A stretch of DNA of 64,000 nt from positions 5,502 to 69,501 of the forward strand of contig JBLGBC010000001.1 in NCBI GenBank assembly GCA_047617435.1. The letters run 5' to 3'. A program made the position numbers and the translations under genes. This DNA comes from Lentimonas sp. (GTDB lineage: Bacteria; Verrucomicrobiota; Verrucomicrobiia; Opitutales; Coraliomargaritaceae). Below, piece after piece: positions 11,068-44,778 of this stretch (the stretch's first letter is position 1; the number at the start of each line of letters is the position of its first letter). The notes under the pieces are model-generated. The model did not search any database, was not told where the DNA came from, and saw only the letters and a program-made list of their open reading frames with translations.

Positions 11068-11091
11068 CTTTTACATTTCAGATTTGAGTTT

Positions 11092-16872: not shown

Positions 16873-17428
16873 TCTTCTTTTTATACTCATAATCGTAGCT
16901 TTATGTTTACGGACGATTGAGTTAGAAGATGCTACTGTGCGTATTGAGGGGTTGTCGAAAGATGGGACGGGGTATACCTCACGGAAAATTGAACTCACTG
17001 ATTTTGAACAGGATATGCTGGGTGAGGCGATGGGGTATAAGTCGATTTATATTTGGAGGGGGTTGCCGTATGTGATCACGATCCTGGATGGGACACGCAA
17101 TCGGCAGGCGGTTCATGACCCTCGTTATTGTTTCATTGGCGCGGGCTGGAGTATTGATGAAGATCAAAAGATCGACTTTGCCGGGGGGGACGCGCGGCGC
17201 ATTACGCTAAGTAATGGTGAGCAGGAGAGTGAAGCGCTGTTTTTCTATTCGACCGGGACGAGTATCTTTAGCCACCCGATCGAGTATTGGTTGCGAGCCA
17301 CGCTGCGACGTTGGTTGCGCAGTTACGGTGGTGATGAACCTCTGTTAGTGATGGTGCAACCGCTGGAGCCCGGCGTTAAGTTGGAGCCGGCTCTAAATGG
17401 ACTACTGCCTGTTTTACGCCTGCCATGA
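16841..17428 (+). CDS. EpsI-family exosortase-associated protein
   Basis: 195 aa with a single N-terminal TM (LILPFSLLFILIIVALCL) followed by a soluble domain. That domain has HDPRYCFIGAGW, which matches my recollection of the EpsI/DUF3485 H-x-P-x-x-C...G-W motif. Confidence 0.65.
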   Translation: MKQQHLILPFSLLFILIIVALCLRTIELEDATVRIEGLSKDGTGYTSRKIELTDFEQDMLGEAMGYKSIYIWRGLPYVITILDGTRNRQAVHDPRYCFIGAGWSIDEDQKIDFAGGDARRITLSNGEQESEALFFYSTGTSIFSHPIEYWLRATLRRWLRSYGGDEPLLVMVQPLEPGVKLEPALNGLLPVLRLP

Positions 17429-17501
17429 GTCGCACTTGTCCGCTATTGGAGCTGCTGCAACCAGCGAGCTATCATTCAAATACGCCGTATTGAGCGATCC
17501 T

Positions 17502-18647
17502 ATGAGTCGCGCGCGAATTTTATTTTTGGATGATAATCCCGACTATGGTGGTCACCAGTTGATGGCGGCGCATGGTTTGGAGGCTGTCTTACAGTCGAAT
17601 CAGTGGGATGTGCGGGGACTCTATAATCCGGAGAATGTAAAGAATCGTGCACGCTGGGAGGCGATCGCATCCGGTTTCAGTCAGGACCGTTTTCAAATGG
17701 CACCCGCGGCGACTAGCAGTGGTCGATTTCAGGCGCTGAAGTCGCATTTTATACCGCATGATTTAGAGGCCTTACGGCTGCAGATTTCCGCGTTTGAGCC
17801 GGATTTGATTTTAGTGATTCAGGGGAATATTGAACAATCGTGTTCTATTTTTAGCATCAAGGGGGAGCTGAGTTGCCCGCTGGTGAGTTATATTCCTTTG
17901 CCGCATAAGCATCAGGAAATGGGTGCCCAACTCGGACTGTTACGTGACTGGACTTGCCGAGGCTTGTACGCTGTCCCGGATGGCTATATCACTCTTTCGG
18001 CAACACTGGCTACGATGTTGCAGGATTATGGTGCCAAAGGCCCCGTGCATGTGGTTGAAAATGGCATTGCCTTAGAGTCCTATCGCGACTTGCCCGCTTC
18101 GGTGGAGGCGCGGCGGCTATTGGGGCTACCTGAGACGGGTTACTTGTGGGGGCACGTCGGGCGTACCGAGTATAAACAGAAGGGGCAGGATGTTTCTTTA
18201 GCAGTATTTGCGCAACGTGCGGCGTTGCATCCCGAGGAGCACCTGGTTTTTTTAGGCAGTGGTCCTGATGATCGGGCGCTACATAAAAGCGCGCAGGGGC
18301 ATCCGCGTGTACATTGCCTGGCTTGGCGGGATCAATTGGCGGTTTTCTATGCTGCGGTGGATGCTCTTTTGCTGCCTTCACGCTACGAAGGCGTTCCGCT
18401 GGTGATGCTGGAAGCCCTGGCATGTGGTGTCCCGGTGGTATCCACCGATCGCGATGGAATGCGCGACTGGTTGCCGAGTTCTTGGCGCTTCCCGTATCGG
18501 GATCGCGGTGCATTTCTAGCCGCAATGACTGCGGTTCGTGCGGATCAGAGCGGTGCCATCGAGGCACTGAAACAAAAGGTTTGGCGTGACCATTCGATGG
18601 AATCCTTCCATCGTGCTTTCAATCTGGAACTGCATTCATGGATCTAA
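17502..18647 (+). CDS. glycosyltransferase family 4
   Basis: ORF track 17397..18647. The ATG at 17502 gives MSRARILFLDDNPDYGGHQLM, a typical GT4 N-terminus. The C-terminus has LLLPSRYEGVPLVMLEALACGVPVVSTDRDGMRD. Confidence 0.8.
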   Translation: MSRARILFLDDNPDYGGHQLMAAHGLEAVLQSNQWDVRGLYNPENVKNRARWEAIASGFSQDRFQMAPAATSSGRFQALKSHFIPHDLEALRLQISAFEPDLILVIQGNIEQSCSIFSIKGELSCPLVSYIPLPHKHQEMGAQLGLLRDWTCRGLYAVPDGYITLSATLATMLQDYGAKGPVHVVENGIALESYRDLPASVEARRLLGLPETGYLWGHVGRTEYKQKGQDVSLAVFAQRAALHPEEHLVFLGSGPDDRALHKSAQGHPRVHCLAWRDQLAVFYAAVDALLLPSRYEGVPLVMLEALACGVPVVSTDRDGMRDWLPSSWRFPYRDRGAFLAAMTAVRADQSGAIEALKQKVWRDHSMESFHRAFNLELHSWI

Positions 18648-19060
18648 AAAATAAAATCCGAAGGTCGACCTGGACTGAACGCTTTGCGATCGCGATGACT
18701 TTCGTGTTTTGCTGCATTTTAGTGCGTTTGACTGTGTGGAAGGAAAGTGAGTTGTTTTGGCTGGATCTCGGTGGCTATGCGGATTGGCAACGCGAGGCTT
18801 TACGCACGTTATACTATCCTTATCTTTTATTCACACTGTCAGCGACTTTGATTTTGAGTTGGTCGGCAGTTTGTGCCTTTTTTCGCACGTTCCGCTTGCG
18901 CCGAGTGTGGGCTCTGCTCGTGCTTTGCTGGGCCCTATTCCTCGGAGCCATTGGACTCTTATTTGCCAATAATTTGACGAATTTCATCGAGGGGCGCCCA
19001 GTTCATTATCACGATTGGGACAGCGTGAAACAGTCATTTGATCGCGATTTAGACGTGTAG
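18638..19060 (+). CDS. small membrane protein (hypothetical)
   Basis: 140 aa with 3 hydrophobic helices. It overlaps the upstream stop by 10 nt and is the last gene of the plus-strand operon. Confidence 0.5.
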   Translation: MDLKNKIRRSTWTERFAIAMTFVFCCILVRLTVWKESELFWLDLGGYADWQREALRTLYYPYLLFTLSATLILSWSAVCAFFRTFRLRRVWALLVLCWALFLGAIGLLFANNLTNFIEGRPVHYHDWDSVKQSFDRDLDV

Positions 19061-19069
19061 GGCACCGGT

Positions 19070-19702
19070 TTAAGGATAAGAGGTGGCGGTCTCGCCCAAT
19101 TGCGGGAAGTGTCTGATCAGGCGGTCGATTTGCACTGTCACGGGTTGACGACCATCGGAGTGGAACTGGGCGGCTCTGGCGCTGGGTTGAACGTACTTTT
19201 GATTCGAGGGGCGAACGGTTTCGTTGAACTGTTGGAGCACGGATGCTCGACTGCGGCCTCGCTGGTTGACATCTCTGTGCACGCGCCTTTCGAGTGCACA
19301 CGCATCGTCGAGGTCGATGAAAATTCGGATCTGAGCGATTGCGTTGAGTGCTTCAAAACAGAGGGCAAAGAGGCCTTCCGCGATGATGTAGTGATTCGAC
19401 AGTAAGGTCTTGTCCGTCGGTTTTCGCAGGTGCTTGCTGAAGTCGTATTGTGGGTACTGAATGCTTTGACCGCGGTTGAGGGCTTGCATCTCGAGGATTA
19501 TGCGCTCGTGTTCCCATGCGTTGGGTTCATCGAAATTATGCCGCTCGCGTGCTGCGTGGCTGAGGTGGCTGAGGTCCCGGTAGTAGTTGTCGAGTGAAAG
19601 GATTGATACGCTGGCCTGGCCCAGGTGAGCGGCGAGGGCCTCGGCGAGGGTTGATTTTCCTGAGCTCGAGGGGCCAGCGATCAGTATGAGGCATGGAGTC
19701 AT
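19070..19702 (-). CDS. udk: uridine kinase
   Basis: 210 aa. P-loop LILIAGPSSSGKSTLAEAL, then SLDNYYRDL...HNFDEPNAWE...YDFSKH...IIAEGLFAL...IFIDLDDACALERRVHRDV, which is the uridine kinase/PRK family pattern. Confidence 0.8.
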   Translation of the reverse strand: MTPCLILIAGPSSSGKSTLAEALAAHLGQASVSILSLDNYYRDLSHLSHAARERHNFDEPNAWEHERIILEMQALNRGQSIQYPQYDFSKHLRKPTDKTLLSNHYIIAEGLFALCFEALNAIAQIRIFIDLDDACALERRVHRDVNQRGRSRASVLQQFNETVRPSNQKYVQPSARAAQFHSDGRQPVTVQIDRLIRHFPQLGETATSYP

Positions 19703-21072
19703 TCTTCAGTCTCAGGTTGCTGTATTGCAGTCTTTTTTTGTGCGGGGAGTCGAATCAGTGCACCGAGTAAGCCGATGTAGGCCATCCAGAGTGCAAGGTT
19801 TTTGGTCTGAGTGAGTACACGTTCGAGACTGCTATGCACATAAGTTATGCTGAATCCGATCAAGATGCCGATGGCGATCGCTGCCTCTAAGCTCCCGCGC
19901 CGAAAGAGAATGAGTGGAATCGTACGGGATGTGACCACGACAATAAAGAGTATGAACGTCAGATAGCCGAGCCAACCGGTTTCACTTTTTAAGAGCCAGT
20001 AGTGGCTCTCGACTACGCCTTTGGCATAATCATAATCCACTCGCATGCCACGTTCGGCGTTCCAGTCATCAATCACATTGCCATAGGGGAAGGGCGGGTT
20101 GATGGCGACCCCGAAATTATTCCAGCCGACGCCCAGTGGATTTGCTTCGAGCATTGCTTTGGCTGCCAAGTTCATGACCTCGCGGGTTCCTTCGCTGGCG
20201 TAATTACCTTCGTCTTGAAAGCGTTTGATGATTGTGTCCATTGACATGCTTAGGACAAATATGCCCCCGATCGTCATCGCTAAAATGGTTATAATCCGAC
20301 GGGCGGAGATCCGGTCATAGAAGCCGCCTCCGATGACGACAATGGAACCCAGAGCAAAAAAGACCAAAGCGGCTCGGGATAAGGTGGCGATAATTATGAT
20401 ACTGGAGCAGGCGTAGGCTGCAAAATAGAAATGGCTGCGCCAGAGTTTTGTGGCGGGTGACATGGCGGCTGCGAGTAGCGGTAAGGCTGCCATGTAGGTG
20501 AACATCGCCAACGGGTTTTGATGCTCGAATAACCCATGTACTTGATAGTCGCCGTCAATCCATTTCATCTTCGCGACGACTAAGAACTGATACATTAACA
20601 TGATGGAGATGCCTGTCAGTATGACGTGTACTTCACGGCGGCTGCGTACGTAATTCGCGACGGCGTAAACGATCAGCCAGACTTTGGCATGCTTGGAAAT
20701 ACTCATCAGTACGTAGCTGGATTCGATGGCAGTAAATAGAGATAGACTGCTCGCGGCGATGTAGAGTATCCAAAGTAGGGTGCCCATCGGCAGGACGACC
20801 AGTTTTTTCTTGGAGTTGAAAATAGTCGCAAAGATCAAGGAGACCGAGAGTATCTCCATCATGCTGAATTCGTAACCTTTTGTGACGCCGCGATACCACT
20901 CGATGGAATTGAGGACGAGTACTGTGGTATCAATATGTAGTCCGAGTAGAAACATCAGCAGTCCCATGGCGACATCCTGCATCCGGCGATCCTTGGATAG
21001 GATGTATCCACCGATCGGGCCCAGCAGCAAGTAGCCGTTCGCGAGTATGGAAAATTTGATTAGATCAAGCAT
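19699..21072 (-). CDS. O-antigen ligase/polymerase-like membrane protein (Wzy-type)
   Basis: ORF track 19699..21108 starts at TTG; the ATG at 21072 is more likely. The protein has about 10-12 TM helices, with IIIATLSRAALVFFALGSIVVIGG typical of the O-antigen ligase (Wzy_C) domain and a large periplasmic loop. Confidence 0.7.
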   Translation of the reverse strand: MLDLIKFSILANGYLLLGPIGGYILSKDRRMQDVAMGLLMFLLGLHIDTTVLVLNSIEWYRGVTKGYEFSMMEILSVSLIFATIFNSKKKLVVLPMGTLLWILYIAASSLSLFTAIESSYVLMSISKHAKVWLIVYAVANYVRSRREVHVILTGISIMLMYQFLVVAKMKWIDGDYQVHGLFEHQNPLAMFTYMAALPLLAAAMSPATKLWRSHFYFAAYACSSIIIIATLSRAALVFFALGSIVVIGGGFYDRISARRIITILAMTIGGIFVLSMSMDTIIKRFQDEGNYASEGTREVMNLAAKAMLEANPLGVGWNNFGVAINPPFPYGNVIDDWNAERGMRVDYDYAKGVVESHYWLLKSETGWLGYLTFILFIVVVTSRTIPLILFRRGSLEAAIAIGILIGFSITYVHSSLERVLTQTKNLALWMAYIGLLGALIRLPAQKKTAIQQPETEE

Positions 21073-22306
21073 TCTGCGTATCGCTGGCTCGTTGGAGCGT
21101 GGCCTCAATCTGATCGGTCATGATTTCTACTGTGAAGTGCGCGGTGATCTCTTGATGTGCCGATGCACTGATACTTTGTCCGTAGTCGGGCAGTTGCAGC
21201 AAGCGTAGAATGGCCTGGGCGAGCGAGCTGGCGGACCCGGCTTCGAAGCCCAGCGCATTGGTTCCATCGGCCAGCAACTCGGCATCGCCCCCATCGGGAC
21301 ACATGATGACCGGGAGCCCGGCTGACATAGCTTCGAGTGGAGTTAATGCGAAGGGTTCACCCCAATTACTCGAGAAAATGTAACCATCGTATTGCGCATA
21401 CCGGGTGCGTATTTCAGCATGGGGCGCCGATTTAAGCCGCACGCAAGCCTGCGCGCCGGCTCGTTTTATTTCGTCCTGAATTTGCGCGGTGTATTCGGGC
21501 TCGCCACGACCATAAATGTCGAGAGTCAGTGGCAATTGCGAGAGCTGTCGTGCCTCCAGAAACCCCTTTAAGGCCGTCATGGGATCTTTATCCTGTGCCA
21601 GCCGTCCGACCCAGATGAAATTACGAGGGGGGTGGAACGCGGTCTTACGCTTAAACTGTGCCTGCTCGACCCCGCAATGAATGACCTTTGCGTGTTCGAC
21701 CGGGTAGCCTTTACCTGCAGTGGTTCGGCGCATGAAATCACTGCAGAAATAGATCTGCTTGAATTTCAGCTGCGTGACCGGTGCGGTCGGGACTTGTTGC
21801 TGGATCCAAGTTCGGAGTCCAGTCACAGTCAGCAGATTGCGTAGTAAGCTGCGGCAGATTGAGCCGGGGCGGTTCCACCAGGACAACCAGACGTCAGCGA
21901 TCAGGCTGCGTGCGATCCAGTGGTCGGAGATGTCGTAGACCACAGGAATCGACTGCGCTTCTAAGCTGTGGAGTAGTGATTTACTGAGCCCCCCCATGTT
22001 CCAAATATGCACGACATCGATTTCGAGTGTGCGCAGTAGCTCGCGCAGAATGAGCTGATTCGTTTTTTCCAGCAGGTAGAGCTTGTGAATCGGTAGCCAG
22101 GGGTGTCCGAAGAATCCGTGAATGCGCAGTTTTCGGTGGATCTGATTTTCGTCGCTGGTATTGCTTTGCTCTAGCTTATGGTTGGACGTGAGTACGTGAA
22201 CGTGATGGCCGCGCGCGCGCAGGCATTCGACGGTATGCAGGCAGCGTTCTTCGTAGCCGCCGATGCCGAGTGGCGGGTAGAGGTTGCTGATGACAAGGAT
22301 TTTCAT
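21065..22306 (-). CDS. glycosyltransferase family 4
   Basis: ORF track 21065..22459. The ATG at 22306 gives MKILVISNLYPPLGIGGYE. The C-terminus has IFSSNWGEPFALTPLEAMSAGLPVIMCPDGGDAEL. Confidence 0.85.
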   Translation of the reverse strand: MKILVISNLYPPLGIGGYEERCLHTVECLRARGHHVHVLTSNHKLEQSNTSDENQIHRKLRIHGFFGHPWLPIHKLYLLEKTNQLILRELLRTLEIDVVHIWNMGGLSKSLLHSLEAQSIPVVYDISDHWIARSLIADVWLSWWNRPGSICRSLLRNLLTVTGLRTWIQQQVPTAPVTQLKFKQIYFCSDFMRRTTAGKGYPVEHAKVIHCGVEQAQFKRKTAFHPPRNFIWVGRLAQDKDPMTALKGFLEARQLSQLPLTLDIYGRGEPEYTAQIQDEIKRAGAQACVRLKSAPHAEIRTRYAQYDGYIFSSNWGEPFALTPLEAMSAGLPVIMCPDGGDAELLADGTNALGFEAGSASSLAQAILRLLQLPDYGQSISASAHQEITAHFTVEIMTDQIEATLQRASDTQNA

Positions 22307-22316
22307 GGCGCAGGGC

Positions 22317-23120
22317 TTAGCCTTTATTGGGATCAAAGAATTTCCAGCAGAGTGCACCGATAAGACGGCGCATGCTGGTCTTGAATGTAGCGGTCGCTGC
22401 GGTCCGACCGAGCAACAAGCCCGGTAAGTTGAGGGCAATAATCTTAATGGAAGAGGCATGCCCCAACCATGTCACGCTGAGTTCGTAGCGTTGCGCGATA
22501 AAGAAAGTGAGGGCAGTATACCGGATTAGCCGGTTGTGTCCGTTTCTGTGGTAGTTAAACGCTACATTTCGTCGGCAGATGTGTTGTCCCGAACGTAGAT
22601 TGCGGAGGGCCCAATCGTAATCCTCCATTCCGTTAATGCTTTCATCAAAGGGGCAGTTGGCCCAATTCGCCCGCTTCAATAGCCCTAAGCTGTTTGAATA
22701 AATCGATCCAAATTTGAGTCCTTTTTCGCACAGCTCGTCCCAGTTGATGTGGTCGGAGTAGTAGGGGTCGTTGTCCCATTTGATGCTACTGGCGCAAACC
22801 GTGAGGTCTTCCACGTCGCGGCACAGTAGTTCCACGGTGTTGGCATCTTGCATTACGGTGTGTGAACTGAGGCAGAGTACCAGCGGTGTTGTACAATGCT
22901 GCATTCCGAAGTTGAGCACCATGGAATGATGGTAGGGCTGGTTCCATTCGATCACCGCCGCGCCCGCGCTACGGAGTAAGTCGCTCGAAGCATCTGAACT
23001 CCCGGTATCGATGGCTAGGATCCGATCGACCGGTCGACTCTGTTGCTGCAGTGCTTTCAGTACCTCCGGCAGTGTAGCGGCCGAGTTTTTGAAGCGAATC
23101 AGTGCGGTGATTTCAGCCAT
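22317..23120 (-). CDS. glycosyltransferase family 2-like
   Basis: ORF track 22317..23327. The ATG at 23120 gives MAEITALIRFKNSAATLPEVLKALQQQSRPVDRILAIDTGSSDAS, a GT2 N-terminal D-x-D region. Confidence 0.7.
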   Translation of the reverse strand: MAEITALIRFKNSAATLPEVLKALQQQSRPVDRILAIDTGSSDASSDLLRSAGAAVIEWNQPYHHSMVLNFGMQHCTTPLVLCLSSHTVMQDANTVELLCRDVEDLTVCASSIKWDNDPYYSDHINWDELCEKGLKFGSIYSNSLGLLKRANWANCPFDESINGMEDYDWALRNLRSGQHICRRNVAFNYHRNGHNRLIRYTALTFFIAQRYELSVTWLGHASSIKIIALNLPGLLLGRTAATATFKTSMRRLIGALCWKFFDPNKG

Positions 23121-23985
23121 TCGAGCATCCTTCCTGATCGCCGTGCGCCTGACCGAGACGCTGTTGGTAGCGCACGCGGAAGGCGTGATAGAATTGGTCG
23201 AGTTGCTGGGTCCGGCGGCAGTAGTTGAAGTCGCGTAGCGTATCCTTAATGACGGGAAGCCACACCTGGCAGAACCGGTTGCGCTTGATGGGGGGCGAGT
23301 GTCCTGCCTGGGCGATTGCCATCGCATCGCCCTTTGCCCGCTGGTAGGCTTGGGCCGGCGTGTAATTGTGCGAGTGGGTCACGATCGAGTTTTCAGCCAT
23401 TACTATGGGATAGCCGGCCGCTTTTAAGCGGCGCGTCCATTCGTCGTCCTCGGCATAGTGCAAGTCCTCGCGGATCGGGTGATGGGCCCAAGTCGGCTTG
23501 TAGGCGACGCAACTGACCATGCTGAAGAAGTGATCCCATTGGCCGGATTCTCGCTCGGGGCCGAAGCATCGTGCGTAGTCATGTGCGAAGACGGCTTGGC
23601 AATCCTGCCGCGGGATCTGTTGGCTAAAAGCCGCGCCGAGGTTGGGCGTATCCACGGCGGCTTGAAGTAACTGTGTGAGCCATTTCTCATTGGCCGGAGT
23701 GGCATCGGAATTGAGGAAAACCACCCACTCATTCGTCGCCAAGTCAAAGCCCTGATTGAGGACTGTGCCGGGCACATAGCTGCCCGCTTGCAGGATAATA
23801 AATTCTTTTGGATTGTAGCGGCGGATGATTTCATGCGAGCCATCCGTCGAAGCGCTGTCGATGACAATTAATTCAATCGTGCCGCGGAAATCCTGAGAAA
23901 ACACAGCCTTTAATGTGTCTTCCAGAGCCCAGGCTTCGTTATACGAGCGCAGCACCAGACTGATGGTTTCGGGCAGCGGGGTCAT
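23113..23985 (-). CDS. glycosyltransferase family 2
   Basis: 290 aa. SLVLRSYNEAWALEDTLKAVFSQDFRGTIELIVIDSASTDGS...VVFLNSDA is the GT2 pattern. Confidence 0.8.
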   Translation of the reverse strand: MTPLPETISLVLRSYNEAWALEDTLKAVFSQDFRGTIELIVIDSASTDGSHEIIRRYNPKEFIILQAGSYVPGTVLNQGFDLATNEWVVFLNSDATPANEKWLTQLLQAAVDTPNLGAAFSQQIPRQDCQAVFAHDYARCFGPERESGQWDHFFSMVSCVAYKPTWAHHPIREDLHYAEDDEWTRRLKAAGYPIVMAENSIVTHSHNYTPAQAYQRAKGDAMAIAQAGHSPPIKRNRFCQVWLPVIKDTLRDFNYCRRTQQLDQFYHAFRVRYQQRLGQAHGDQEGCSNG

Positions 23986-25238
23986 CGGTATTTTTCTGCG
24001 ACTTGCTGATAAATCGTTTCCAGTTGATCGGCCAGGCGTGTCCAGGTATAGCGCTGCTGGATTTCACGTTGCGCCTGCTCGACCGTGGATCGGCGAAGTG
24101 CCTCAACTGTGCGGATGCGTTGCATGGCTGCGACCAGTGCCTCGCAATGGCCGCTTTCGAAGTGCAGGCCGTTTTTCTCATGGCTGACTAATCGGGACAG
24201 CCCGCCGACATTTGCCGCAATCACAGGTTTTCCGGCCGCCCAGGCTTCCAGCACAACAATGCCAAAGGGTTCATGGCGCGAGGGGAGTACAAAGCAATCG
24301 AGGGCAGCGAACAGCCCCCGATGTTCCGGGGTGTCCGGCGTCACCGGAGGCAGGATACGGATGCGTTGGCCGAAGCCGGACGCCTCGGCTGCAGCCTTTA
24401 ATGTGTTGTGGTAAGCGAGATTGGTGATCGGCCCGCACAGCACCAGCGCGGCATTCGGATCCTGCGCGGCGATCCGGCAGAAGGCATTGATCAGCAAAAC
24501 CTGGTTTTTCTGTGGATCGAGCCGTGAGATGCAGCCATAGAGAAAGGTCGTGTCGTTGCAGCCGAGCTGGTTGCGTGTGGTCGTACGTTCCGCTTGAGTC
24601 GCATTGAATCGCTCTGGATGCACACCGTTGGGCAGGAAATGGACTCGTTCGGAACCGAGGGCGGCACGGGCTTTTTCGTATTCGGAAAAGCCGACACAGA
24701 GCACGGCATCCACCTCATGCAACATGCGGCGACTGCCAAAGTAGGCACCGAAGGCGCGCCCCCATTCGAACTTACCCGCTTGAGCTGGCACGACATCGGC
24801 TGCCTCAATTTCAGGCACATCAAACATGTTGCCGTGCAGTGTGACGACGCAGGGGCGGCGCGCCAGACGGGCGGCTTTGAGTACGGAGGCACCCGTCCGC
24901 TTCGTCACGTGGGCATGGAAGATGCGCACATCCTTGGCTTTGCGCAGGGCACGGTAGAGTGGCCAGGAGAGTAAGTTGCCGCCTTTCTGATCCAACTGAT
25001 TTCGGTCTTCGGCGCAGAGCCCCAGAAAGGGGTAGCAATACGGATAGCGATGGACGGGGATCGTTCTGAAACGCTCACTGCGATTCGGATTGAGCGCCAT
25101 CGAAGTGTGAATCTCGGGTTGCCAGCCCTGCGCCAATTGCGCCTCACACAGTGCTGTGATCACTGCTTCTGTGCCGCCCCAATCGCTGGTACTGAATCGG
25201 CGGGGGATGTGGAGTATGCGTTGGGGCGATTCGCTCAT
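23982..25238 (-). CDS. glycosyltransferase family 4
   Basis: 418 aa. ILHIPRRFSTSDWGGTE...CFVLPSRHEPFGIVVLEAWAAGKPVIAANVGGL. Confidence 0.85.
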   Translation of the reverse strand: MSESPQRILHIPRRFSTSDWGGTEAVITALCEAQLAQGWQPEIHTSMALNPNRSERFRTIPVHRYPYCYPFLGLCAEDRNQLDQKGGNLLSWPLYRALRKAKDVRIFHAHVTKRTGASVLKAARLARRPCVVTLHGNMFDVPEIEAADVVPAQAGKFEWGRAFGAYFGSRRMLHEVDAVLCVGFSEYEKARAALGSERVHFLPNGVHPERFNATQAERTTTRNQLGCNDTTFLYGCISRLDPQKNQVLLINAFCRIAAQDPNAALVLCGPITNLAYHNTLKAAAEASGFGQRIRILPPVTPDTPEHRGLFAALDCFVLPSRHEPFGIVVLEAWAAGKPVIAANVGGLSRLVSHEKNGLHFESGHCEALVAAMQRIRTVEALRRSTVEQAQREIQQRYTWTRLADQLETIYQQVAEKYR

Positions 25239-26896
25239 TCGTCCAGAGCCTTTTTGATGTTATTTAAGAGCAGCGGGATGAGTTGTTTTTTACGTGAAAC
25301 AAACTCATCAATAATCCAAGGCGTGTTGCGCTTCAGGTGAACTTCCGGAATTTGTGCCCGCAACCATTTGTCTTCCGAACTGATGAGCAGTATGCGGCTG
25401 CGACCCTTGACTACATCGGTGATCATCAGGGCCCCGAAGACTGCTGTGCTTGCGCTCAAACTATGGCTGAAGGCTTCGGAGAGTTGGGCGGCCAGGGCTT
25501 CATCCAGCACATCCAAATCGACTGTTTCGATTTGAGCCGCTAAGAACTGTACCGATTCAAAGGTGAATGGCTTGCAGTCATGCCGCACCAGTACCTCCGG
25601 AGACGCTGTGGTCAGTTCATCGTTTTGCTTGAGCACTTTGAGCCCGAAGTCCCGTAGTTTGACTCCCGCGGTGGCCGCGAGCTGGGTGGCGCGTTTTTTG
25701 TCACTTTGGGTACAGGTGGGGGAGGTGAGTAGTAAGGTATCCGAGATCAATGCGCCTAATAAAAGTTTTGCGATCGAAGCGGGCATTTCGATGCCGGCTT
25801 CTTTGATGTGATCGTACAGGATCGATGCGGTGGAGCCGAGCGGGCGCACGTCGATGCTGAGTGGTTGGATGGTTTCAATGTCGCCCAAGCGATGATGGTC
25901 GATGATTTCGATGACTTCCGCGTCCTCCAATCCGTCGATGCTTTGTCCGCGCTCACTGTGGTCGACTAAACTGATCTTTGGGCGTTTTAAGTTGAGCAAG
26001 TCGAGCGCCGAGATGGCGCCTGCCGCGTGCCCTTGTGCATCAATGACGAGTAAGCCCCATGGCGATTTGCGCATGTAGTGGCAGATTCGATCCTCCTCCG
26101 AGTGCTCTTCAACGGTAATAAAGGTTTCGTCCATTGCCGCTGAGGCCGGAAAGCAACCGGGCAATTGAGTCAGCATGCCGATGACGGTTCCGTGGTAACG
26201 GTACACGGGGCAAGGGAGTTGGTGCGCGATTTCTTCAGCCCTGGAATCTTCGATATCAGTCAGGATGATGGCTGCGGGGGGTGTCTCGCGGATCTTGTCG
26301 AGGAATTGATCGCGGTCGCCGATAATGAGGGCGGTTTTGTTGTTCCAGTTGCCCTGAATATTTGCCTTATGTAGGGGGACCTGCAGTAGATCCACTTTCG
26401 GCAGTTGCGGATTGGATCGGATTGTCGTGAGTTGCAGGCCGCGGATGAGGTGATTGAAATCCAATAGCGTCCCAATGAAGTCTTCGACATTACACTGGAG
26501 CAAATAATTGGTTCGCTGGGTCCGGTCGCTGATGATGCCGAGTGGGCGCCCGGCGGGGTCCACCACAGCTACAAATTCAGTACCCGCGCGTTGCATGATC
26601 TCCAAGGCTTCCCGCAGGGGGCAGTCTTGTTTGACTACGGGGACTGGGCGGCAGATTTCTCCCGCGCGATAACGGCAGGTTACGCGATATTGCGGCAGGC
26701 TGCAATGGGCCTGTTCAAATAGCCAGGTAGTTTGGCGATTCACCGCTCCCAGACGCAATGGGATGGCTTTCGAGCTGGGGTTGCCCTGATTGTGGAGCCA
26801 TGCCAGTACGTGGGCAGAAACGACGCTGTCACAATCGGGGTTTTTATGACCGACGATATAATGCGGTACGATCTTAGTCTTTGCTTTGAGCTGCAT
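25235..26896 (-). CDS. CBS-domain-containing family II inorganic pyrophosphatase (DHH - CBS pair - DHHA2)
   Basis: 553 aa. IVGHKNPDCDSVVSAHVLAW is DHH motif I-II. An inserted CBS-like region follows (REALEIMQRAGTEFVAVVDPAGRPLGIISDR). Then LVDHSE, IDHHRLG and the DHHA2-like tail. Confidence 0.75.
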   Translation of the reverse strand: MQLKAKTKIVPHYIVGHKNPDCDSVVSAHVLAWLHNQGNPSSKAIPLRLGAVNRQTTWLFEQAHCSLPQYRVTCRYRAGEICRPVPVVKQDCPLREALEIMQRAGTEFVAVVDPAGRPLGIISDRTQRTNYLLQCNVEDFIGTLLDFNHLIRGLQLTTIRSNPQLPKVDLLQVPLHKANIQGNWNNKTALIIGDRDQFLDKIRETPPAAIILTDIEDSRAEEIAHQLPCPVYRYHGTVIGMLTQLPGCFPASAAMDETFITVEEHSEEDRICHYMRKSPWGLLVIDAQGHAAGAISALDLLNLKRPKISLVDHSERGQSIDGLEDAEVIEIIDHHRLGDIETIQPLSIDVRPLGSTASILYDHIKEAGIEMPASIAKLLLGALISDTLLLTSPTCTQSDKKRATQLAATAGVKLRDFGLKVLKQNDELTTASPEVLVRHDCKPFTFESVQFLAAQIETVDLDVLDEALAAQLSEAFSHSLSASTAVFGALMITDVVKGRSRILLISSEDKWLRAQIPEVHLKRNTPWIIDEFVSRKKQLIPLLLNNIKKALDE

Positions 26897-28028
26897 GATA
26901 CATGACCGGGTAAATGTCCTCTAAGCGTTCAACCGGTTGTGGTGTTTCGAAATTGGAAAGCCAGCAGGCCGCGCTATCTTTATGCTCCGGGGCATAGCCG
27001 TGCATTCCCGGCAGCGTGCTAAGGTTAAGAAAGGAGGGGACGAAGAGTGTGCCCGGATGGAGGAGGTAAAAGAGTTCACCGTAGGTTTGATGCGGGAAAT
27101 TGCAGCGCCATTTTTCTAGGGTATCCGCATCCAGGATTCGGCCTTCGGGGGCGGATTCGAGGAGTTGTGTAATTTGTTGTTTCGCGCAGTCATTGTGAAA
27201 CCAAAAGCGCGCCATCGTTGAATCCCAGACTGCGACGTAATCAGGGCCATAGCGCAAGGGTAGTTTTTCACAGCGCGTTCTTAGATCTGAATTTTCCTGC
27301 ACTTCGGTCATGCCATGATCACTAAATATGGAAAGCCGCACATTTTGGTAGTTTTGCTCGGCGAGCTGCATCAAGTTTTCAACTTTTACATCAAAGGTGT
27401 TGAATGCTGCTTTAGTTTGCGGTGACCATGGGCCATAGCGGTGCATGGTGGCATCGAGCCCGGCAGTAAACAGGTAGAGTAATTCGACCTCGCCTGCTTG
27501 TATCAGTGCCTCCGCTTCAGCGTAATTGTCGGCATCTCCGCTGCGCCAGTTTGAGCGATGCCAGATTTTACCCGAGCGTTTCCACGCTTCAAAGATGCTT
27601 TCTTGGCCGCCGATGATACCGTTCGGTTCATAGATGTCCTTTTTTTCGGTGTAATCCAGCCACGGTAAACAGCGGAAAGGGACACTGTAGAGCTGAAAGT
27701 AGCCGGTGTAGCCTTTGACTTTGGCAAAGATTCGACTGAGCCGATTGCGCAACTTATGGTAGCCGGCAATACGCTCCGGGAGCCAGCCGAGCCAGCGCAT
27801 GCAGCGAAAGGGGGACTGGGCCGGGGGAGCTTTTACGAAGAAAGAAAAGTGCCCATGTTCATGGGGCGAAGTTCCGGTCAAAATAGTCGGATCGCAAGTG
27901 GCGGAGTAGCCAAAGAGTGTTTCACATTTTCTTTGGTAGGGCGCGACCGATTTCAGTATGCCGTAGTGCTGAACCAGCTCCCAACCCAGCGCGTCTGCAA
28001 ATATGAATAAGTGCACCGTTTTCTTCAT
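26874..28028 (-). CDS. alkaline-phosphatase-superfamily enzyme (nucleotide pyrophosphatase/phosphodiesterase-like)
   Basis: 384 aa. Metal and nucleophile positions are recognisable: IFADALGWE, SATCDPTILTGTSPHEHG, AGLDATMHRYG, IFSDHGM, GMHGY. Confidence 0.65.
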   Translation of the reverse strand: MKKTVHLFIFADALGWELVQHYGILKSVAPYQRKCETLFGYSATCDPTILTGTSPHEHGHFSFFVKAPPAQSPFRCMRWLGWLPERIAGYHKLRNRLSRIFAKVKGYTGYFQLYSVPFRCLPWLDYTEKKDIYEPNGIIGGQESIFEAWKRSGKIWHRSNWRSGDADNYAEAEALIQAGEVELLYLFTAGLDATMHRYGPWSPQTKAAFNTFDVKVENLMQLAEQNYQNVRLSIFSDHGMTEVQENSDLRTRCEKLPLRYGPDYVAVWDSTMARFWFHNDCAKQQITQLLESAPEGRILDADTLEKWRCNFPHQTYGELFYLLHPGTLFVPSFLNLSTLPGMHGYAPEHKDSAACWLSNFETPQPVERLEDIYPVMYHAAQSKD

Positions 28029-28393
28029 TTCAGGTCCAGGAATTCTTTAATGAGTTTCTGCAGCTTGCGCGGGCTGAATGGTTTCGCGAGCAGCGCATCC
28101 GGATTCAGCGCCTTGATGGCATTCAGTTCCTCATCCTGAACCGCCGCGGTTACGAAGACGATGGGGATGTGCTTGCCATTGGGCATTTCGCGAATGCGAC
28201 GATAGAGTTCGACCCCATTGATGTCGGGTAAACTGTAGTCCAGCACCGCGAGGTCGGGGGCGATACTTTCAAATTTTTCGAGCGCGGAGGTGCCGTCGTT
28301 AAAGAAAAAACCTTCACAGCCCGCTCGTTTGACTTGCAGCTGAAAGAGCCGAAACATGACGATATCATCATCAACTACTAGAACCTTTTTCAT
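28025..28393 (-). CDS. single-domain response regulator (CheY-like receiver)
   Basis: 122 aa. VLVVDDD...DLAVLDYSLPDING...VFVTA...LAKPF. ATGA-type overlaps on both sides. Confidence 0.9.
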   Translation of the reverse strand: MKKVLVVDDDIVMFRLFQLQVKRAGCEGFFFNDGTSALEKFESIAPDLAVLDYSLPDINGVELYRRIREMPNGKHIPIVFVTAAVQDEELNAIKALNPDALLAKPFSPRKLQKLIKEFLDLK

Positions 28394-30105
28394 AATGTAT
28401 TGCGAGATAATATCAGCACGGTTTCATCATCTTCCTGTAAGATGTTTTGAGTGTGTCGGGCGGCATCCATTTTATTGTGAAATAGATCCCACAGCTCGGC
28501 TGGGGCGATGTCACGATGTGTTTCAAACCAGTGCACCATGTCATCCCAATTATATCGATTCCCATCGGCCTGTGTCCACTCATAGAGTCCATCGGTGACG
28601 ATCAGTAGTCGATCCTGTGGGGCTAATTGGATTCGATTTTCGGTGTATTGCATCTCCCGGAATAAGCCGATTGGCGGGCCGCTTGAGACCAGTTGTGTTG
28701 TTTTGCCGTCTGCGGTGAAGAGCAATGCGGGCGGGTGCCCCGCTCCGGCGTAGGACAGTTCGTGAGTCGTCGGGTTCAGTTTGAATACAAATGCGGTGAT
28801 AAACATCGTGGCCTCTCCGAGCTGAGCTTCGAGTGCCATATTGGTATATTTGAGAAAGTTCGAGAGTGAGCCACCCCGGTGGTTGAATGCGATAAATTGG
28901 CTGCGGAAAATCCCGGCCAGAATGGCCGCAGAGATGCCTTTGCCCATCACATCGATGACGCATGCAGTGTACTCCCCCTCACTATTCAAGCTGACTTCGA
29001 CGAAGTCCCCCGCGACTTCCAATGCGCTGATGCTATGTATTAACAGATCGTAGCCGGGTATATTCGCTGGTTCGTGGCTAATGGGCAGTAATTGGCGCTG
29101 TAATTTAGTCGCGATATTTATTTCGGTGGATAGGCGCTGTCGTTCATCCCGTTCTTTTTCCATTAGTCTGCGGGAGAGCGTTGCTGCGAAGATGTCGGCG
29201 AGTGCCTTTAGGTGATGGACATCATTCGAACGAATCTCTCTTGTTTCGTTGGCATAGGCTACCGCGATGAGACCGACGACTCGGTCGCTAACCAAAATGG
29301 GCACACAAGCGCCGGTCGGGTACTCGTCAATACGATCAAACGGCTTATGCGGGCTCTTCGTGTTCCAGATTAGCGCGCCACTTTGCTTTAGCAGTTGCCA
29401 GTTTCCTTCCAATAAATGGCCAAAGAATGCATGTGCTTCGACTTTATCAATCCACTCCAATGCCTCAATGTTCATGCTTTGGTGCATTTCTATGTTGATC
29501 GCATCGTAATCGCGCGAATCCATGAAAATCTCCAATCCAGACCTGATGGAGTGGTCAATCAGCTGATCTTCGAGTAAGTTTTCGGCCATGCGATCGTAGA
29601 GTGATAGACTCTCGTAGCAGTCGGATAGCTCATCCATGATGGCATCCATTTCTTCATTCTGTGCTGTAACGTTGTTTAACCGTTCATAGTGTTTACCCAT
29701 CTGAGCCGTATAACCGGATGCGCTGATCCAGTGTTCATGCGTATCCGAAAAGTTGTGGATAATGAATAAACCTCGCCCCCCTTCGGCGAGCGGGTCCGCC
29801 GGCAGTCTGGGGGTGGCCTGTTGTTCTTTGGATGGCCCCGGGCCCTCGTCTTGTGTCTCCAGCCAGATGGAGTTGCCCTGCGCCCACCAGCGCGCAGAAA
29901 TTATTTTTTCAGGTAAGCCATAGCTACCGTGTTCGATCGCGTTGTTGACGGCTTCGGTAAATGTGAGTTTCCAGCCCTCTTTTTCGGTGTCATTCAACCC
30001 CAAAGAAAGTAGGAATTCGATGAACTTCGACCTCACATCGGGAATAATTTGAGGGTCTGCCGAAAACTGGTATGCGTAAATGCTTAAGCTGGCTTCACTA
30101 TTCAT
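28390..30105 (-). CDS. fusion protein: RsbW/SpoIIAB-like serine kinase (HATPase_c_2) + GAF-like region + PP2C/SpoIIE phosphatase
   Basis: 571 aa. The N-terminus has EAVNNAIEHG (N-box), DEGPGP and GGRGLFIIHNF (G-boxes). The C-terminus has ATKLQRQLLP, EVAGDFVEV, VIDVMGKGISAAILAG, YAGAGHPPALLF and LLIVTDGLYE, which is SpoIIE/PP2C. Confidence 0.8.
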   Translation of the reverse strand: MNSEASLSIYAYQFSADPQIIPDVRSKFIEFLLSLGLNDTEKEGWKLTFTEAVNNAIEHGSYGLPEKIISARWWAQGNSIWLETQDEGPGPSKEQQATPRLPADPLAEGGRGLFIIHNFSDTHEHWISASGYTAQMGKHYERLNNVTAQNEEMDAIMDELSDCYESLSLYDRMAENLLEDQLIDHSIRSGLEIFMDSRDYDAINIEMHQSMNIEALEWIDKVEAHAFFGHLLEGNWQLLKQSGALIWNTKSPHKPFDRIDEYPTGACVPILVSDRVVGLIAVAYANETREIRSNDVHHLKALADIFAATLSRRLMEKERDERQRLSTEINIATKLQRQLLPISHEPANIPGYDLLIHSISALEVAGDFVEVSLNSEGEYTACVIDVMGKGISAAILAGIFRSQFIAFNHRGGSLSNFLKYTNMALEAQLGEATMFITAFVFKLNPTTHELSYAGAGHPPALLFTADGKTTQLVSSGPPIGLFREMQYTENRIQLAPQDRLLIVTDGLYEWTQADGNRYNWDDMVHWFETHRDIAPAELWDLFHNKMDAARHTQNILQEDDETVLILSRNTL

Positions 30106-30111
30106 TGGTGA

Positions 30112-31278
30112 TTATTTGATGTCTTTGATCCAGCTGTCAAAGATCTGGCGAAGTTGTTCGGGTTCAATCGATGCTTGATACACGCAGTGTGAGGATTCTT
30201 CGAATGAGCCGATCTCCAGCTCTCCCATCAAATCTGCATAACTAAATGCACCGAGCGTCGCATCGCGCAAGATGGATCTCCATTCATGGTTCAATTCGGT
30301 TAAGGCTGCGGTGGGGCGAGGCGTGACGCCGAAGAGCGCGAGTTTTCCCTGTATGACTAATTTTAGCCAAGGCGCGCGCGCCTGTAGGCTTGTATCGATG
30401 GGCTTCGGCCACACTCGGCCTTTTGCGTCGGTGAAGGTTTCAGTCGTCCGTGGCTTTTGCTTGGTCCAGTTCCGGTAGAGTCGCAGGGCAATCCATCGGT
30501 CATAGATCGTCGGTTTCGATCTCGTTTTATTTTTATTTTCAGAGACTCCGCTCGCTAAAAATGCATCCAGACTCTTAATCCGCGCACGGTGCTTAAAATT
30601 GATTAATTCGTTTCGATGGATGGTTGCATCCTTGAGATTAATCTCCGGTCCCAAATAGGTGTGGGTGCCCAAGTGAGCCCGCTCCAGATTATTGCCGCCA
30701 GCTAGTATGCATCCGTCTTGGATGACGGCTCCCGGGCCCACGGTACAATTCGGCCCGATGGAAACAAAATTCCCGATCCAGTAGGGTGGGGTAAATATGA
30801 CATCATCTGCGATTTCACAATTCTTTCCTATGGCCGCAAAGTATCCATACTTTTTAGTCTCCTCGGCGAAAATAACGAGCCACTCTTGCTCCAGTTTATG
30901 CCAGTATAATATCAAAGACCAGGCATCGTCGGGGTAGCTTTCCTTAGGCGGCGTATTTGGCAGGCGATTCACGCAGTCATGAACTGTGGCGTCCTGGATT
31001 GACTGGACTGTATGCACTTCGATCTGAAGTGGCCAGAGCGAGGCCTCGGAGATTTGTCTACGTACATCATCATGCCGGTCTGCGACGTAGAGTGCCACTT
31101 TTTGAGTGCCTTGATCCACCGCCGCATCGAGCCAGTGGAAAAGCAGCGCCTGTTCGCCGACAGGCCATAGGGCAAAAGGCAGCTTACGTTGCCAGACTTT
31201 ATCAATATCACCCCAGTCCGCTAATGACAGATGCCATGTCTTCGGACCCTCAGGTCGGTGTTCAGTGGATTGCGTCAT
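30112..31278 (-). CDS. hexapeptide-repeat (LbH) protein with a degenerate sugar-transferase-like C-terminal segment
   Basis: 388 aa. The central region IGNFVSIGPNCTVGPGAVIQDGCILAGGN is a left-handed beta-helix. The C-terminal LKLVIQGKLALFGVTPRP...LGAFSYADLMG parallels LINVLRGEMSLVGPRPP...PGLTCLWQIGG of the adjacent priming transferase. Confidence 0.55.
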   Translation of the reverse strand: MTQSTEHRPEGPKTWHLSLADWGDIDKVWQRKLPFALWPVGEQALLFHWLDAAVDQGTQKVALYVADRHDDVRRQISEASLWPLQIEVHTVQSIQDATVHDCVNRLPNTPPKESYPDDAWSLILYWHKLEQEWLVIFAEETKKYGYFAAIGKNCEIADDVIFTPPYWIGNFVSIGPNCTVGPGAVIQDGCILAGGNNLERAHLGTHTYLGPEINLKDATIHRNELINFKHRARIKSLDAFLASGVSENKNKTRSKPTIYDRWIALRLYRNWTKQKPRTTETFTDAKGRVWPKPIDTSLQARAPWLKLVIQGKLALFGVTPRPTAALTELNHEWRSILRDATLGAFSYADLMGELEIGSFEESSHCVYQASIEPEQLRQIFDSWIKDIK

Positions 31279-31286
31279 GCGTGGAT

Positions 31287-32087
31287 CTAGTAAGCCCCGC
31301 GCCCGATAATTACAGCAGGTATGGTTTTTATTAAAATCAAGAGATCTTGGCGTAGACTTTGAGAATGGATGTATTGCAGGTCCAGGCGAACTTGGCCTTC
31401 AAAGTCAATTTCGGCTCGTCCTCCGATTTGCCACAGGCAGGTTAGGCCGGGCTTTGCTCTCAGGCGACGCAGGTGGCGCGCGCCGTACAAAGCAACTTCT
31501 CTCGGGACTGGCGGGCGCGGGCCCACGAGTGACATTTCCCCACGCAGCACATTTATCAGTTGTGGGAATTCATCCACTGAGAACCGGCGCAACCATTTTC
31601 CGGGTTTCGTTATACGTGGGTCATCTTTTAGTTTGAAGGTGATGCCGCCCGCATGCTGGTTGCGGTCTAATAATTGCTCCTTTATTCCATCCGCATTCAG
31701 CAGCATCGTGCGAAACTTAAGCATCGTGAACAGACGACCGGCTTCCCCGACGCGGTCCTGTTTATAGAAAATCGGGCCATTATCGTAGCGCTTTATCGCG
31801 AGAATGGAGATGAGGAAAATCGGTGAGAATAACATCAGTGCAAAGATGCTCCCGCAAAAATCCAACAATCGTTTCATGGCAAAAGCCAAACGAACGATAC
31901 AGCGCCAACGCATTTGTTTGATACGTGCCTTGCGATGCCACTTTTCCGCATTGCCAGAGAGTAGCACTTTACCCCAGAAAATGTTTTCGGGTGTGTTTTT
32001 AGGTGCTCCAGGTACAGTTGGCATGGATTTTTTGTAAGTAGACGAGGATTTCGGGTGCAAAATCACAGCCGAAGGGGGTATATCCAT
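31287..32087 (-). CDS. polyprenyl-phosphate glycosyl-1-phosphate transferase (bacterial sugar transferase, priming enzyme)
   Basis: KRLLDFCGSIFALMLFSPIFL...GPIFYKQDRVGEAGRLFTMLKFRTM...DEFPQLINVLRGEMSLVGPRPP is the PF02397 pattern. The start is uncertain: in-frame ATGs at 32087, 32024, 31913 and 31877, with 31877 (MKRLLDF) typical of small PGTs. Confidence 0.85.
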   Translation of the reverse strand: MDIPPSAVILHPKSSSTYKKSMPTVPGAPKNTPENIFWGKVLLSGNAEKWHRKARIKQMRWRCIVRLAFAMKRLLDFCGSIFALMLFSPIFLISILAIKRYDNGPIFYKQDRVGEAGRLFTMLKFRTMLLNADGIKEQLLDRNQHAGGITFKLKDDPRITKPGKWLRRFSVDEFPQLINVLRGEMSLVGPRPPVPREVALYGARHLRRLRAKPGLTCLWQIGGRAEIDFEGQVRLDLQYIHSQSLRQDLLILIKTIPAVIIGRGAY

Positions 32088-32325: not shown

Positions 32326-32364
32326 GAAAAGTAAAACGCCCGATAGCTCAAGTGCTATCGGGCG
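32326..32364 (-). terminator. rho-independent terminator downstream of the DUF481 gene
   Basis: Perfect 11-bp stem cgcccgatagc/gctatcgggcg (32337-32347 and 32354-32364) with a 6-nt loop. On the minus strand it is followed by TTTTACTTTTC. Confidence 0.75.
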
Positions 32365-32483
32365 TAAAACCTTTTAAAATTTCAGTCATTGATGGACTGC
32401 TTTCTTTGTCGCGCGCACGGCAAATGCAGATGAACTGCCGGCGAGTCGAATCGATTTAAAAGCGGCCCGGTCGCGGGCTAGCG

Positions 32484-44743: not shown

Positions 44744-44778
44744 GCCCGAGTAACCGATTTTTTTGGGAATTTAGATAA

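Follow-up and report, generated by a model that had tools for sequence, protein, structure and literature searches.

A kinase-GAF-phosphatase protein encoded within an exopolysaccharide locus of Lentimonas is a candidate SypE-like regulator of STAS phosphorylation

A 64,000-nucleotide stretch of the genome of Lentimonas sp. (Verrucomicrobiota; assembly GCA_047617435.1, contig JBLGBC010000001.1, positions 5,502 to 69,501 of the forward strand), here called the window and numbered from its first nucleotide, contains an exopolysaccharide (EPS) locus in which one gene encodes an RsbW-like serine kinase, a GAF domain and a SpoIIE/PP2C-type serine phosphatase on a single chain of 571 residues. We refer to this protein as KGP (kinase-GAF-phosphatase). 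Its gene and that of a 122-residue receiver form a pair of overlapping minus-strand genes, and the same locus encodes a free STAS protein (STAS1) and a GT26 glycosyltransferase with two further STAS domains. We propose that KGP, encoded within the EPS locus, both adds and removes phosphate on STAS domains and resembles SypE of Vibrio fischeri, a reading to which we give a probability of roughly 0.6. The domain identities, the conservation of catalytic and acceptor residues, the linkage of the genes and the lack of a sigma factor in the window are direct observations. An initial annotation of this DNA had suggested a self-contained STAS toggle set by the GAF region and/or the receiver; the catalytic, acceptor and synteny data agree with such a device, whose biochemistry is deduced from sequence, and the one correction needed is that all of the genes concerned lie on the minus strand.

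Domain composition of KGP

The KGP ORF (open reading frame) is uninterrupted, and an exact look-up identifies its product as NCBI entry MFT4900766.1, already machine-annotated as 'serine phosphatase RsbU / anti-sigma regulatory factor (Ser/Thr protein kinase)'. The N-terminal domain matches the Pfam family HATPase_c_2 (residues 14-125, E=3e-17), and a profile of the KGP family finds RsbW (6m36, E=2e-17) and SpoIIAB (E=1e-16) in the PDB over positions 10-146. Residue-level alignment of KGP with SpoIIAB pairs the N box (EAVNNAIEHG and EAVTNAIIHG), the G1 box (DEGPG and DEGVG) and the G2 box (GGRGLF and SGMGFT), the three kinase motifs that the initial annotation had placed at this end of the protein. 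No change at E51, N55, R111 or G112 is seen among 94 homologues with 22-63% identity, and at least 90% of them keep D86, E108 and G110; the residues needed for ATP binding, on which the kinase assignment had been said to depend, are thus present.

The C-terminal domain is the most strongly matched part of the protein (SpoIIE, residues 376-568, E=2e-41) and holds the complete SpoIIE/PP2C motif set claimed for it, with the PPM metal-ligand residues D367, D385 (within DVMGKG), D505-G506 and D559-D560 invariant in the 94-sequence alignment. In both enzymatic domains the catalytic positions are exactly those that stay invariant or nearly so. The best PDB match of the family profile is Rv1364c (3ke6, E=1e-33), which covers both the PP2C and the kinase stretches, and the phosphatase domain also matches SiaA and RssB by PDB profile and by Foldseek. 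NCBIfam models for RsbW, SpoIIAB, SpoIIE, RssB and SiaA all match KGP partially and below their cutoffs.

The GAF-like sensor region predicted between the enzymatic domains is also found, though less directly. KGP as a single sequence has GAF_2 and GAF matches on residues 254-310, the C-terminal half of a GAF domain, and these fall below the Pfam threshold. The family profile, by comparison, matches complete GAF domains in the PDB (3o5y, 3oov and 5w10) over positions 167-326, with E values of 2e-7 to 4e-7, and distant KGP homologues bear precomputed GAF matches in Pfam. The assignment rests on this sequence profile and on the matches of the homologues; it was not independently confirmed by the Foldseek list for the whole model, which is dominated by PP2C and SpoIIAB matches. 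That list, obtained with an AlphaFold2 model of KGP, contains the phosphatase domains of RssB, SiaA, Rv1364c and SpoIIE, and SpoIIAB (1th8) with a target-normalised TM-score of 0.85. In the secondary structure of the model a long helix (residues 293-339) leads from the end of the GAF domain into the phosphatase.

An 11/12 match to a sigma-70-like promoter (TTGACA-18-AATAAT; 30111..30140, minus strand) ends 6 nt before the KGP ATG. It is unproven and would imply a near-leaderless internal transcript; in a promoter and terminator scan of the 18.4-33 kb region the site counts were not above those of shuffled controls.

Distribution and gene neighborhood of the KGP family

KGP belongs to a family of proteins of about 570 residues found throughout the Verrucomicrobiota, with identities to the window protein of 63% down to about 22%; members come from Coraliomargarita, Lentimonas, Cerasicoccus, Pelagicoccus, Luteolibacter, Prosthecobacter, Chthoniobacter and Limisphaerales. 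The best match in homology searches is 63%, with no self-match; the 90% cluster that holds the window protein is represented by a 150-residue fragment. In a small number of records the bin name is not verrucomicrobial (Zhongshania, Blastochloridaceae, Bifidobacteriaceae and Cyanophyceae), and since these share the same gene content they are likely to be mis-binned contigs. A tblastn search with KGP of the plasmids in PLSDB returned only partial matches to GAF-PP2C or PP2C stretches, none covering 80% or more of the query and none from Vibrio.

The gene neighborhoods were compared in 79 KGP loci, each from a different species-level genome and extending up to 10 kb on each side, whose ORFs were searched with the window proteins. 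A block consisting of priming transferase, left-handed beta-helix (LbH) protein, an optional STAS gene, KGP, receiver, phosphodiesterase and GT4 recurs across orders, and the gene order is confirmed by independent gene calls with precomputed Pfam matches on a Verrucomicrobiaceae contig (locus L080) and on one other contig (L081). The priming transferase is present in 49 of the 64 loci with at least 4 kb of upstream sequence, and the LbH protein is always paired with it. The same architecture and gene order in 79 loci of different species is not to be expected by chance.

The coupled receiver gene and its possible inputs

The receiver has a complete acceptor set (D8/D9, D52, T82 and K104), which is retained in 58 orthologues. 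The KGP stop and the receiver start share the sequence ATGA (junction TTATGAAAAAG), so that the 4-nt overlap reported between KGP and a CheY-like gene can be read directly, and the junction between receiver and phosphodiesterase is likewise ATGA. A 4-nt overlap between KGP and receiver is seen at 23 of 57 junctions across the loci, and at 51 of the 57 the distance is 20 nt or less. Among the 74 loci with enough flanking sequence, the receiver lies directly downstream of KGP in 55.

Some related loci carry candidate sensors next to the block. In three close relatives (L001, L003 and L016) there are three genes between LbH and KGP, coding for an H-NOX haem sensor, a PAS-HisKA-HATPase-REC hybrid kinase and a 385-residue receiver protein; in the distant L080, an H-NOX gene and one for an HNOBA-PAS-GAF kinase stand upstream of the same block. 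H-NOX together with a hybrid histidine kinase occurs in 10 of 81 related loci (L003 at 6297..10004, L080 at 2171..6123, and L001, L011, L016, L029, L058, L065, L066 and L070), and many further related loci have large hybrid kinases close by. These genes parallel the HnoX/HahK input to syp in Vibrio fischeri. In the window an H-NOX protein, a histidine kinase and the 385-residue receiver protein were sought and none was found, only receiver domains being matched; Pfam scans of the predicted genes and larger leftover ORFs likewise gave no histidine kinase.

STAS domains of the locus

STAS1 has its predicted phospho-acceptor, Ser55, within the motif FIDSSG, and the Asp-Ser pair (D54-S55) is invariant in all 76 single-domain homologues. 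When a hidden Markov model (HMM) built from these homologues was run over all six frames of the window it found just three STAS domains, that of STAS1 and the two inside the GT26 gene, which were the only candidates that the initial annotation had recognized. A STAS1 homologue is present within 10 kb of KGP in 57 of the 64 loci with at least 4 kb upstream, and directly upstream of KGP in 24. Many loci with a Verrucomicrobiales or Limisphaerales label show this adjacent position, sometimes with the STAS gene duplicated. Several loci from Opitutales and Akkermansiaceae instead have the STAS gene at the head of a divergent operon that continues with genes for a 361-residue protein, GT4, GT26-STAS, GT4 and a 665-residue protein; the window holds this STAS-led operon too, but there it is convergent with the KGP operon. 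STAS1 is the most likely substrate and partner of KGP.

The first STAS domain of the GT26 protein keeps the motif F-[IM]-D-S in 10 of 10 aligned orthologues and is 35% identical to STAS1 over 51 residues, with Ser322 aligned to Ser55; the second aligns with STAS1 at Ser431. The fusion is not peculiar to the window: of the best 120 matches, only three short and probably incomplete entries do not combine PF03808 with STAS models, and GT26-STAS proteins with one or two STAS domains, some of them further fused to GT4, occur across the Verrucomicrobiota. In loci L071 and L079 the GT26-STAS gene directly follows the receiver, giving the order STAS-STAS-KGP-REC-GT26STAS. Identical lengths of the longest contig in the KGP and GT26-STAS homologue lists suggest, indirectly, that at least 16 long contigs hold both genes.

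Organization of the exopolysaccharide locus

The EPS locus spans about 32 kb and consists of two convergent operons (Table 1), which together encode GT4, GT2 and GT26 enzymes, two Wza proteins, Wzx, Wzy, an exosortase, EpsI and two PEP-CTERM proteins. The plus-strand operon runs from STAS1 through the 361-residue hypothetical protein, GT4, GT26(WecG)-STAS-STAS, GT4 and the 665-residue protein of no assigned family to two Wza-like exporters, Wzx, two PEP-CTERM proteins, a TPR protein, the exosortase, an EpsI-like protein and GT4. The minus-strand operon comprises, in order, priming transferase, LbH, KGP, receiver, phosphodiesterase, CBS-pyrophosphatase, GT4, GT2, GT2, GT4, Wzy and a PRK-family kinase. 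The flanks described for KGP are therefore as read in the initial annotation, with Bac_transf and LbH upstream and Phosphodiest, DHH-CBS-DHHA2, GT4 and GT2 downstream.

Table 1. Features of the exopolysaccharide locus in the Lentimonas sp. window
Feature	Coordinates	Strand	Basis and remarks
Whole PEP-CTERM/exosortase-type EPS locus, ~32 kb	85..32087		Two convergent operons
STAS1, single-domain STAS, 99 aa	124..423	+	MFT4900740.1; STAS E=5e-13
Conserved hypothetical protein, 361 aa	438..1523	+	Adjoins STAS1; predicted nucleotidyltransferase fold
GT26 (WecG/TagA/CpsF) glycosyltransferase with two C-terminal STAS domains	2736..4181	+	Pfam; candidate second substrate or output
First STAS domain of GT26 protein	3588..3860	+	Ser322
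Second STAS domain of GT26 protein	3918..4145	+	Ser431
Tandem Wza-like exporters	7311..8468, 8393..9544	+	Poly_export + SLBB; predicted ORFs overlap
Two paralogous DUF4114 secreted proteins	11215..12093, 12745..13614	+	PEP-CTERM signal
Exosortase	15569..16363	+	Exosortase_EpsH
EpsI-like DUF3485 protein	16841..17428	+	
CBS-domain family II (DHH/DHHA2) inorganic pyrophosphatase	25235..26896	-	Overlaps neighbours
Type I phosphodiesterase / nucleotide pyrophosphatase family	26874..28028	-	Conserved gene after receiver; Pfam, synteny, L080 and L081
Single-domain response-regulator receiver, 122 aa	28025..28393	-	Pfam Response_reg E=2e-21
KGP, 571-aa kinase-GAF-phosphatase	28390..30105	-	ORF, Pfam, PDB profile, AlphaFold2, Foldseek
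KGP SpoIIE/PPM (PP2C) Ser phosphatase domain, aa ~335-569	28399..29103	-	Metal ligands D367, D385, D505, D559, D560
KGP GAF domain, aa ~167-326	29128..29607	-	Family profile against PDB
KGP RsbW/SpoIIAB-type GHKL Ser kinase domain, aa 10-146	29668..30078	-	N box E51/N55, G1 D86-x-G88, G2 G110-R-G112
LbH (hexapeptide) protein, 388 aa	30112..31278	-	Ends 6 nt before KGP start
Priming polyprenyl-phosphate sugar-phosphate transferase	31287..32087	-	Bac_transf; first gene of minus operon

The two DUF4114 proteins end in ...NPEPSFWLMMGA[LV]CGLGVWLYRR, a tail of the PEP...hydrophobic...RR type, and these tails together with the adjoining TPR, exosortase and EpsI-like genes mark the locus as one of the PEP-CTERM/exosortase type. 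The tandem Wza-like pair is also present in L081. The CBS-pyrophosphatase may drive nucleotide-sugar synthesis forward through the removal of pyrophosphate.

The 361-residue protein neighbors the STAS gene in the window and in many related loci and has the invariant motif GGGYGRxEGG...NDLDYF. It has no Pfam match at E≤1 and no PDB sequence match by profile search. A model of the family (AlphaFold2, from database homologues) has a predicted local distance difference test (pLDDT) of 95.9 and a predicted template modelling score (pTM) of 0.91, and its nearest folds are, weakly, nucleotidyltransferases (ANT(4')/KNTase, Hailong HalB and MNT; Foldseek E ~1e-3, TM 0.4-0.5). The STAS module might include this protein as an additional component or act on it as a target.

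The priming transferase of the window is without a STAS domain. LbH has a C-terminal stretch (LKLVIQGKLALFGVTPRP...) colinear with the last part of Bac_transf; a Pfam Bac_transf match is present in the L080 orthologue of LbH, and some orthologues match the transferase in BLAST. The pairwise match within the window, sought as a sign that the LbH end is a degenerate Bac_transf, falls short of significance (E=0.37).

Between a DUF481 gene and the priming transferase there is a strong 12-bp terminator-like hairpin (32336..32365, minus strand). Farther along the window, 44219..49191 on the plus strand encodes a small MshEN-like protein, two tandem receiver-AAA+ (NtrC-like) proteins in which the sigma-54 and helix-turn-helix (HTH) signatures are weak or absent, and a T2SSE/PilB-type ATPase. 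These genes have the look of a regulatory cluster for a pilus or for secretion, with no connection to the EPS locus. An ORF at 58649..59647 (plus strand) has an IS200-like Y1 transposase domain of which only the N-terminal part is matched (residues 20-81).

Proposed mechanism and alternatives

Partner switching is usually taught as a form of sigma-factor control. In the mechanism that we consider probable here, the N-terminal kinase of KGP would bind STAS1 and phosphorylate Ser55, probably acting also on Ser322 and/or Ser431 of the GT26-fused STAS domains, and the C-terminal PP2C domain would take the phosphate off again. The central GAF domain, together with the long helix, would set the balance between the two activities by the generic sensor, coiled-coil linker and PPM-dimer mechanism. 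The co-translated receiver would supply the input that SypE obtains from its internal receiver, with Asp52 as the presumed site of phosphorylation by a histidine kinase. If the sign of SypA and All4160 can be borrowed, unphosphorylated STAS would be the 'on' state. The STAS phosphorylation state would then control EPS assembly at the level of the enzymes, with a glycosyltransferase rather than a sigma factor as the likely control point. A bolder version, which we regard as tentative and rather doubtful, is a phylum-wide, sigma-free switch in which the kinase chooses between free STAS and GT26 STAS and so directly gates repeat-unit assembly of exosortase-type EPS, with an H-NOX (NO/O2) input in many lineages.

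Several points weigh against this regulator model. Each transfer of phosphate, whether control is positive or negative, the receiver's part and the output are all inferred, for a family known from sequence. The likeness to SypE is drawn from its published architecture. The mean pLDDT of the KGP model is 90.6 but its pTM is 0.57, so that the single domains are confident and their arrangement uncertain. The GAF core is weakly conserved, which makes a shared ligand unlikely, and the 19 of 74 loci that have no downstream receiver show that the receiver is not obligatory. About 28 kb separate STAS1 from KGP, and STAS1 stands at the end of the convergent operon remote from KGP, although in the same EPS locus. 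Only 9 of 79 loci have GT26-STAS no more than 10 kb from KGP, a lower bound because the flanks are shorter than the gene cluster. Finally, a sigma factor or other partner may be encoded outside the window.

This last point leads to the classical anti-sigma switch of the RsbW/RsbV or CrsR/CrsA kind, in which the kinase would hold a sigma factor, or a transcription regulator of another type, whose gene lies elsewhere; unphosphorylated STAS1 would free it, and the EPS operons would then be transcribed. The true anti-sigma factors RsbW and SpoIIAB are indeed what the kinase domain resembles most, RpoS is bound by the fused proteins CrsR and HsbR (PMC6482189), and both NCBI and JGI annotate KGP as 'anti-sigma regulatory factor'. 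However, no sigma-70-family Pfam match was obtained among the scanned genes and larger leftover ORFs of the 64-kb window, nor in the annotated neighborhoods of L080 and L081; the conserved operon core has no room for a sigma-factor gene, and the STAS candidates are encoded in the same cluster as KGP. The same clusters moreover fuse STAS domains directly to a biosynthetic enzyme, and in the nearest analogue, SypE/SypA, the STAS protein works downstream of the kinase (PMC10120452). We thus think this switch improbable. About equally unlikely in our judgment is a scheme in which the enzyme takes the place of the sigma factor, the kinase silencing GT26 through its STAS domain or domains and free unphosphorylated STAS1 acting as an antagonist or decoy that releases it. 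The likeness of STAS1 and the first GT26 STAS domain around the acceptor serine, the conservation of both genes in the same clusters and the gene order in L071 and L079 all suit such a scheme, but GT26-STAS is not seen within 10 kb in many loci, its orthologues vary between one and two STAS domains, nothing tells binding from plain phosphorylation, and sequestration of an enzyme by an RsbW-like domain is without precedent.

The remaining alternatives concern KGP itself. Were the N-terminal domain a pseudo-kinase that only docks, KGP would be a GAF-regulated phosphatase and the true STAS kinase would be encoded elsewhere. The PP2C match is much the stronger of the two and GAF-PP2C proteins without a kinase are common, but invariant or nearly invariant ATP-binding residues over a very divergent family are unexpected for a pseudo-enzyme, and the window contains no second HATPase_c_2 gene; we hold this to be very unlikely. 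The rarity of the KGP domain order is all that would suggest an assembly or gene-calling error joining two genes. This is refuted by the unbroken ORF and by the recurrence of the same three-domain protein of about 570 residues in over 90 homologues, which come from separate assemblies and from isolate genomes, among them Coraliomargarita, Lentimonas, Cerasicoccus, Luteolibacter, Prosthecobacter and Pelagicoccus.

Relationships to known partner-switching systems

A literature search for partner switching in Verrucomicrobia returned nothing relevant, only unrelated chlamydial work. Elsewhere, the nearest known analogue of KGP and STAS1 is SypE/SypA of Vibrio fischeri. SypE has an N-terminal RsbW-like serine kinase, a central REC domain and, at its C-terminus, a PP2C domain on one chain (PMC10120452), and it sets the phosphorylation of Ser56 in the 105-residue STAS protein SypA, within the syp polysaccharide locus of 18 genes; in its unphosphorylated form SypA favours biofilm formation through a target still to be found (PMC10120452, PMC4517449, PMC8256260). 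SypE receives input from sensor kinases, among them HahK, which is under NO/HnoX control (PMC12369376). KGP shares with SypE the order of the outer domains on one chain, a single-domain STAS protein of about 100 residues with a conserved serine as substrate, predicted in the case of KGP (Ser56 in SypA, Ser55 here), a location together with STAS inside a Wzx/Wzy-type polysaccharide locus, and no known sigma-factor output. Two-component input including an H-NOX-controlled kinase would also be common to both, although here H-NOX and the hybrid kinase are present only in related loci. The systems differ in that the central REC of SypE is replaced by GAF and the receiver is a separate, translationally coupled gene, in that additional STAS domains are fused to GT26, and in belonging to the Gammaproteobacteria and the Verrucomicrobiota respectively.

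A second relationship is to the cyanobacterial enzymes that contain STAS domains. For the STAS-glycosyltransferase theme there is a single precedent from experiment: phosphorylation of the Anabaena STAS-Bac_transf protein All4160 by Alr3423 inhibits it, and the REC-SpoIIE phosphatase HenR reactivates it (PMC13555669). In this system and Synechocystis XssP, as proposed here, a partner-switching-like kinase and a PP2C phosphatase act on STAS within a polysaccharide glycosyltransferase, and direct, sigma-independent regulation of EPS is a theme shared with HenR/All4160, in which a receiver domain controls the phosphatase. In contrast to KGP, Anabaena has its kinase and phosphatase on two proteins whose genes lie away from that of the enzyme, and the STAS domains of All4160 and XssP are N-terminal to Bac_transf, whereas those of the window are C-terminal to GT26 (WecG/TagA) and accompanied by free STAS. 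The window GT26-STAS protein is therefore analogous to the All4160/XssP-type fusions and not a member of them. The authors of the All4160 study regarded STAS-glycosyltransferase fusions as rare outside cyanobacteria and the strategy as lineage-specific (PMC13555669; bioRxiv 10.64898/2026.04.08.717354); GT26-STAS is a second, independent case of such a fusion in another phylum.

A kinase and phosphatase on one chain is not new, being known from SypE, HsbR, CrsR and Rv1364c (PMC10120452, PMC6482189). HsbR of Pseudomonas and CrsR of Shewanella, which act on HsbA and CrsA, likewise fuse PP2C with an RsbW-like kinase, use a single-domain STAS protein, are under receiver control and have a link to biofilm. 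Their domain order is REC-PP2C-kinase rather than kinase-GAF-PP2C, they are anti-sigma factors for RpoS, their outputs are FlgM/FliA and a diguanylate cyclase, and their genes lie outside polysaccharide loci (PMC6482189). Rv1364c of Mycobacterium tuberculosis also carries phosphatase and RsbW-like kinase on one chain but has the order PAS-PP2C-kinase-STAS with the STAS domain fused, is linked to SigF and is without EPS context. The Bacillus systems RsbU/RsbV/RsbW and SpoIIE/SpoIIAA/SpoIIAB use the same three catalytic and acceptor domain families as separate proteins, and in these, as with RsbZ of C. difficile (GAF-GAF-PP2C), the kinase serves as an anti-sigma factor and the switch acts on transcription. 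The GAF, long helix and PPM layout of KGP matches the general modular activation mechanism of sensor, linker and PPM domains, in which GAF, PAS, HAMP and receiver domains are interchangeable (PMC12143880). What is new in KGP is thus not the principle, but the exchange of GAF for receiver, the phylum-wide conservation and the coupling to GT26-STAS.

Partner switching that controls polysaccharide has been seen in two systems, SypE/SypA of Vibrio and more recently HenR/All4160 of Anabaena. The Verrucomicrobiota would be a third lineage, with conservation across the phylum, in which a compact cassette of STAS, kinase-GAF-phosphatase, receiver and GT26-STAS unites a SypE-like fusion with STAS domains on a different glycosyltransferase family, GT26. 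The cassette gives a testable hypothesis for the switching of capsule or EPS in marine Verrucomicrobia such as Lentimonas and Coraliomargarita, and its domain fusion is a clue that free STAS proteins in EPS loci may act on glycosyltransferases. If our reading is correct, enzyme-level control through STAS phosphorylation would be a general bacterial strategy and not a cyanobacterial speciality, and by the logic of domain fusion the glycosyltransferases would become candidates for the long-sought target of SypA-like STAS proteins.

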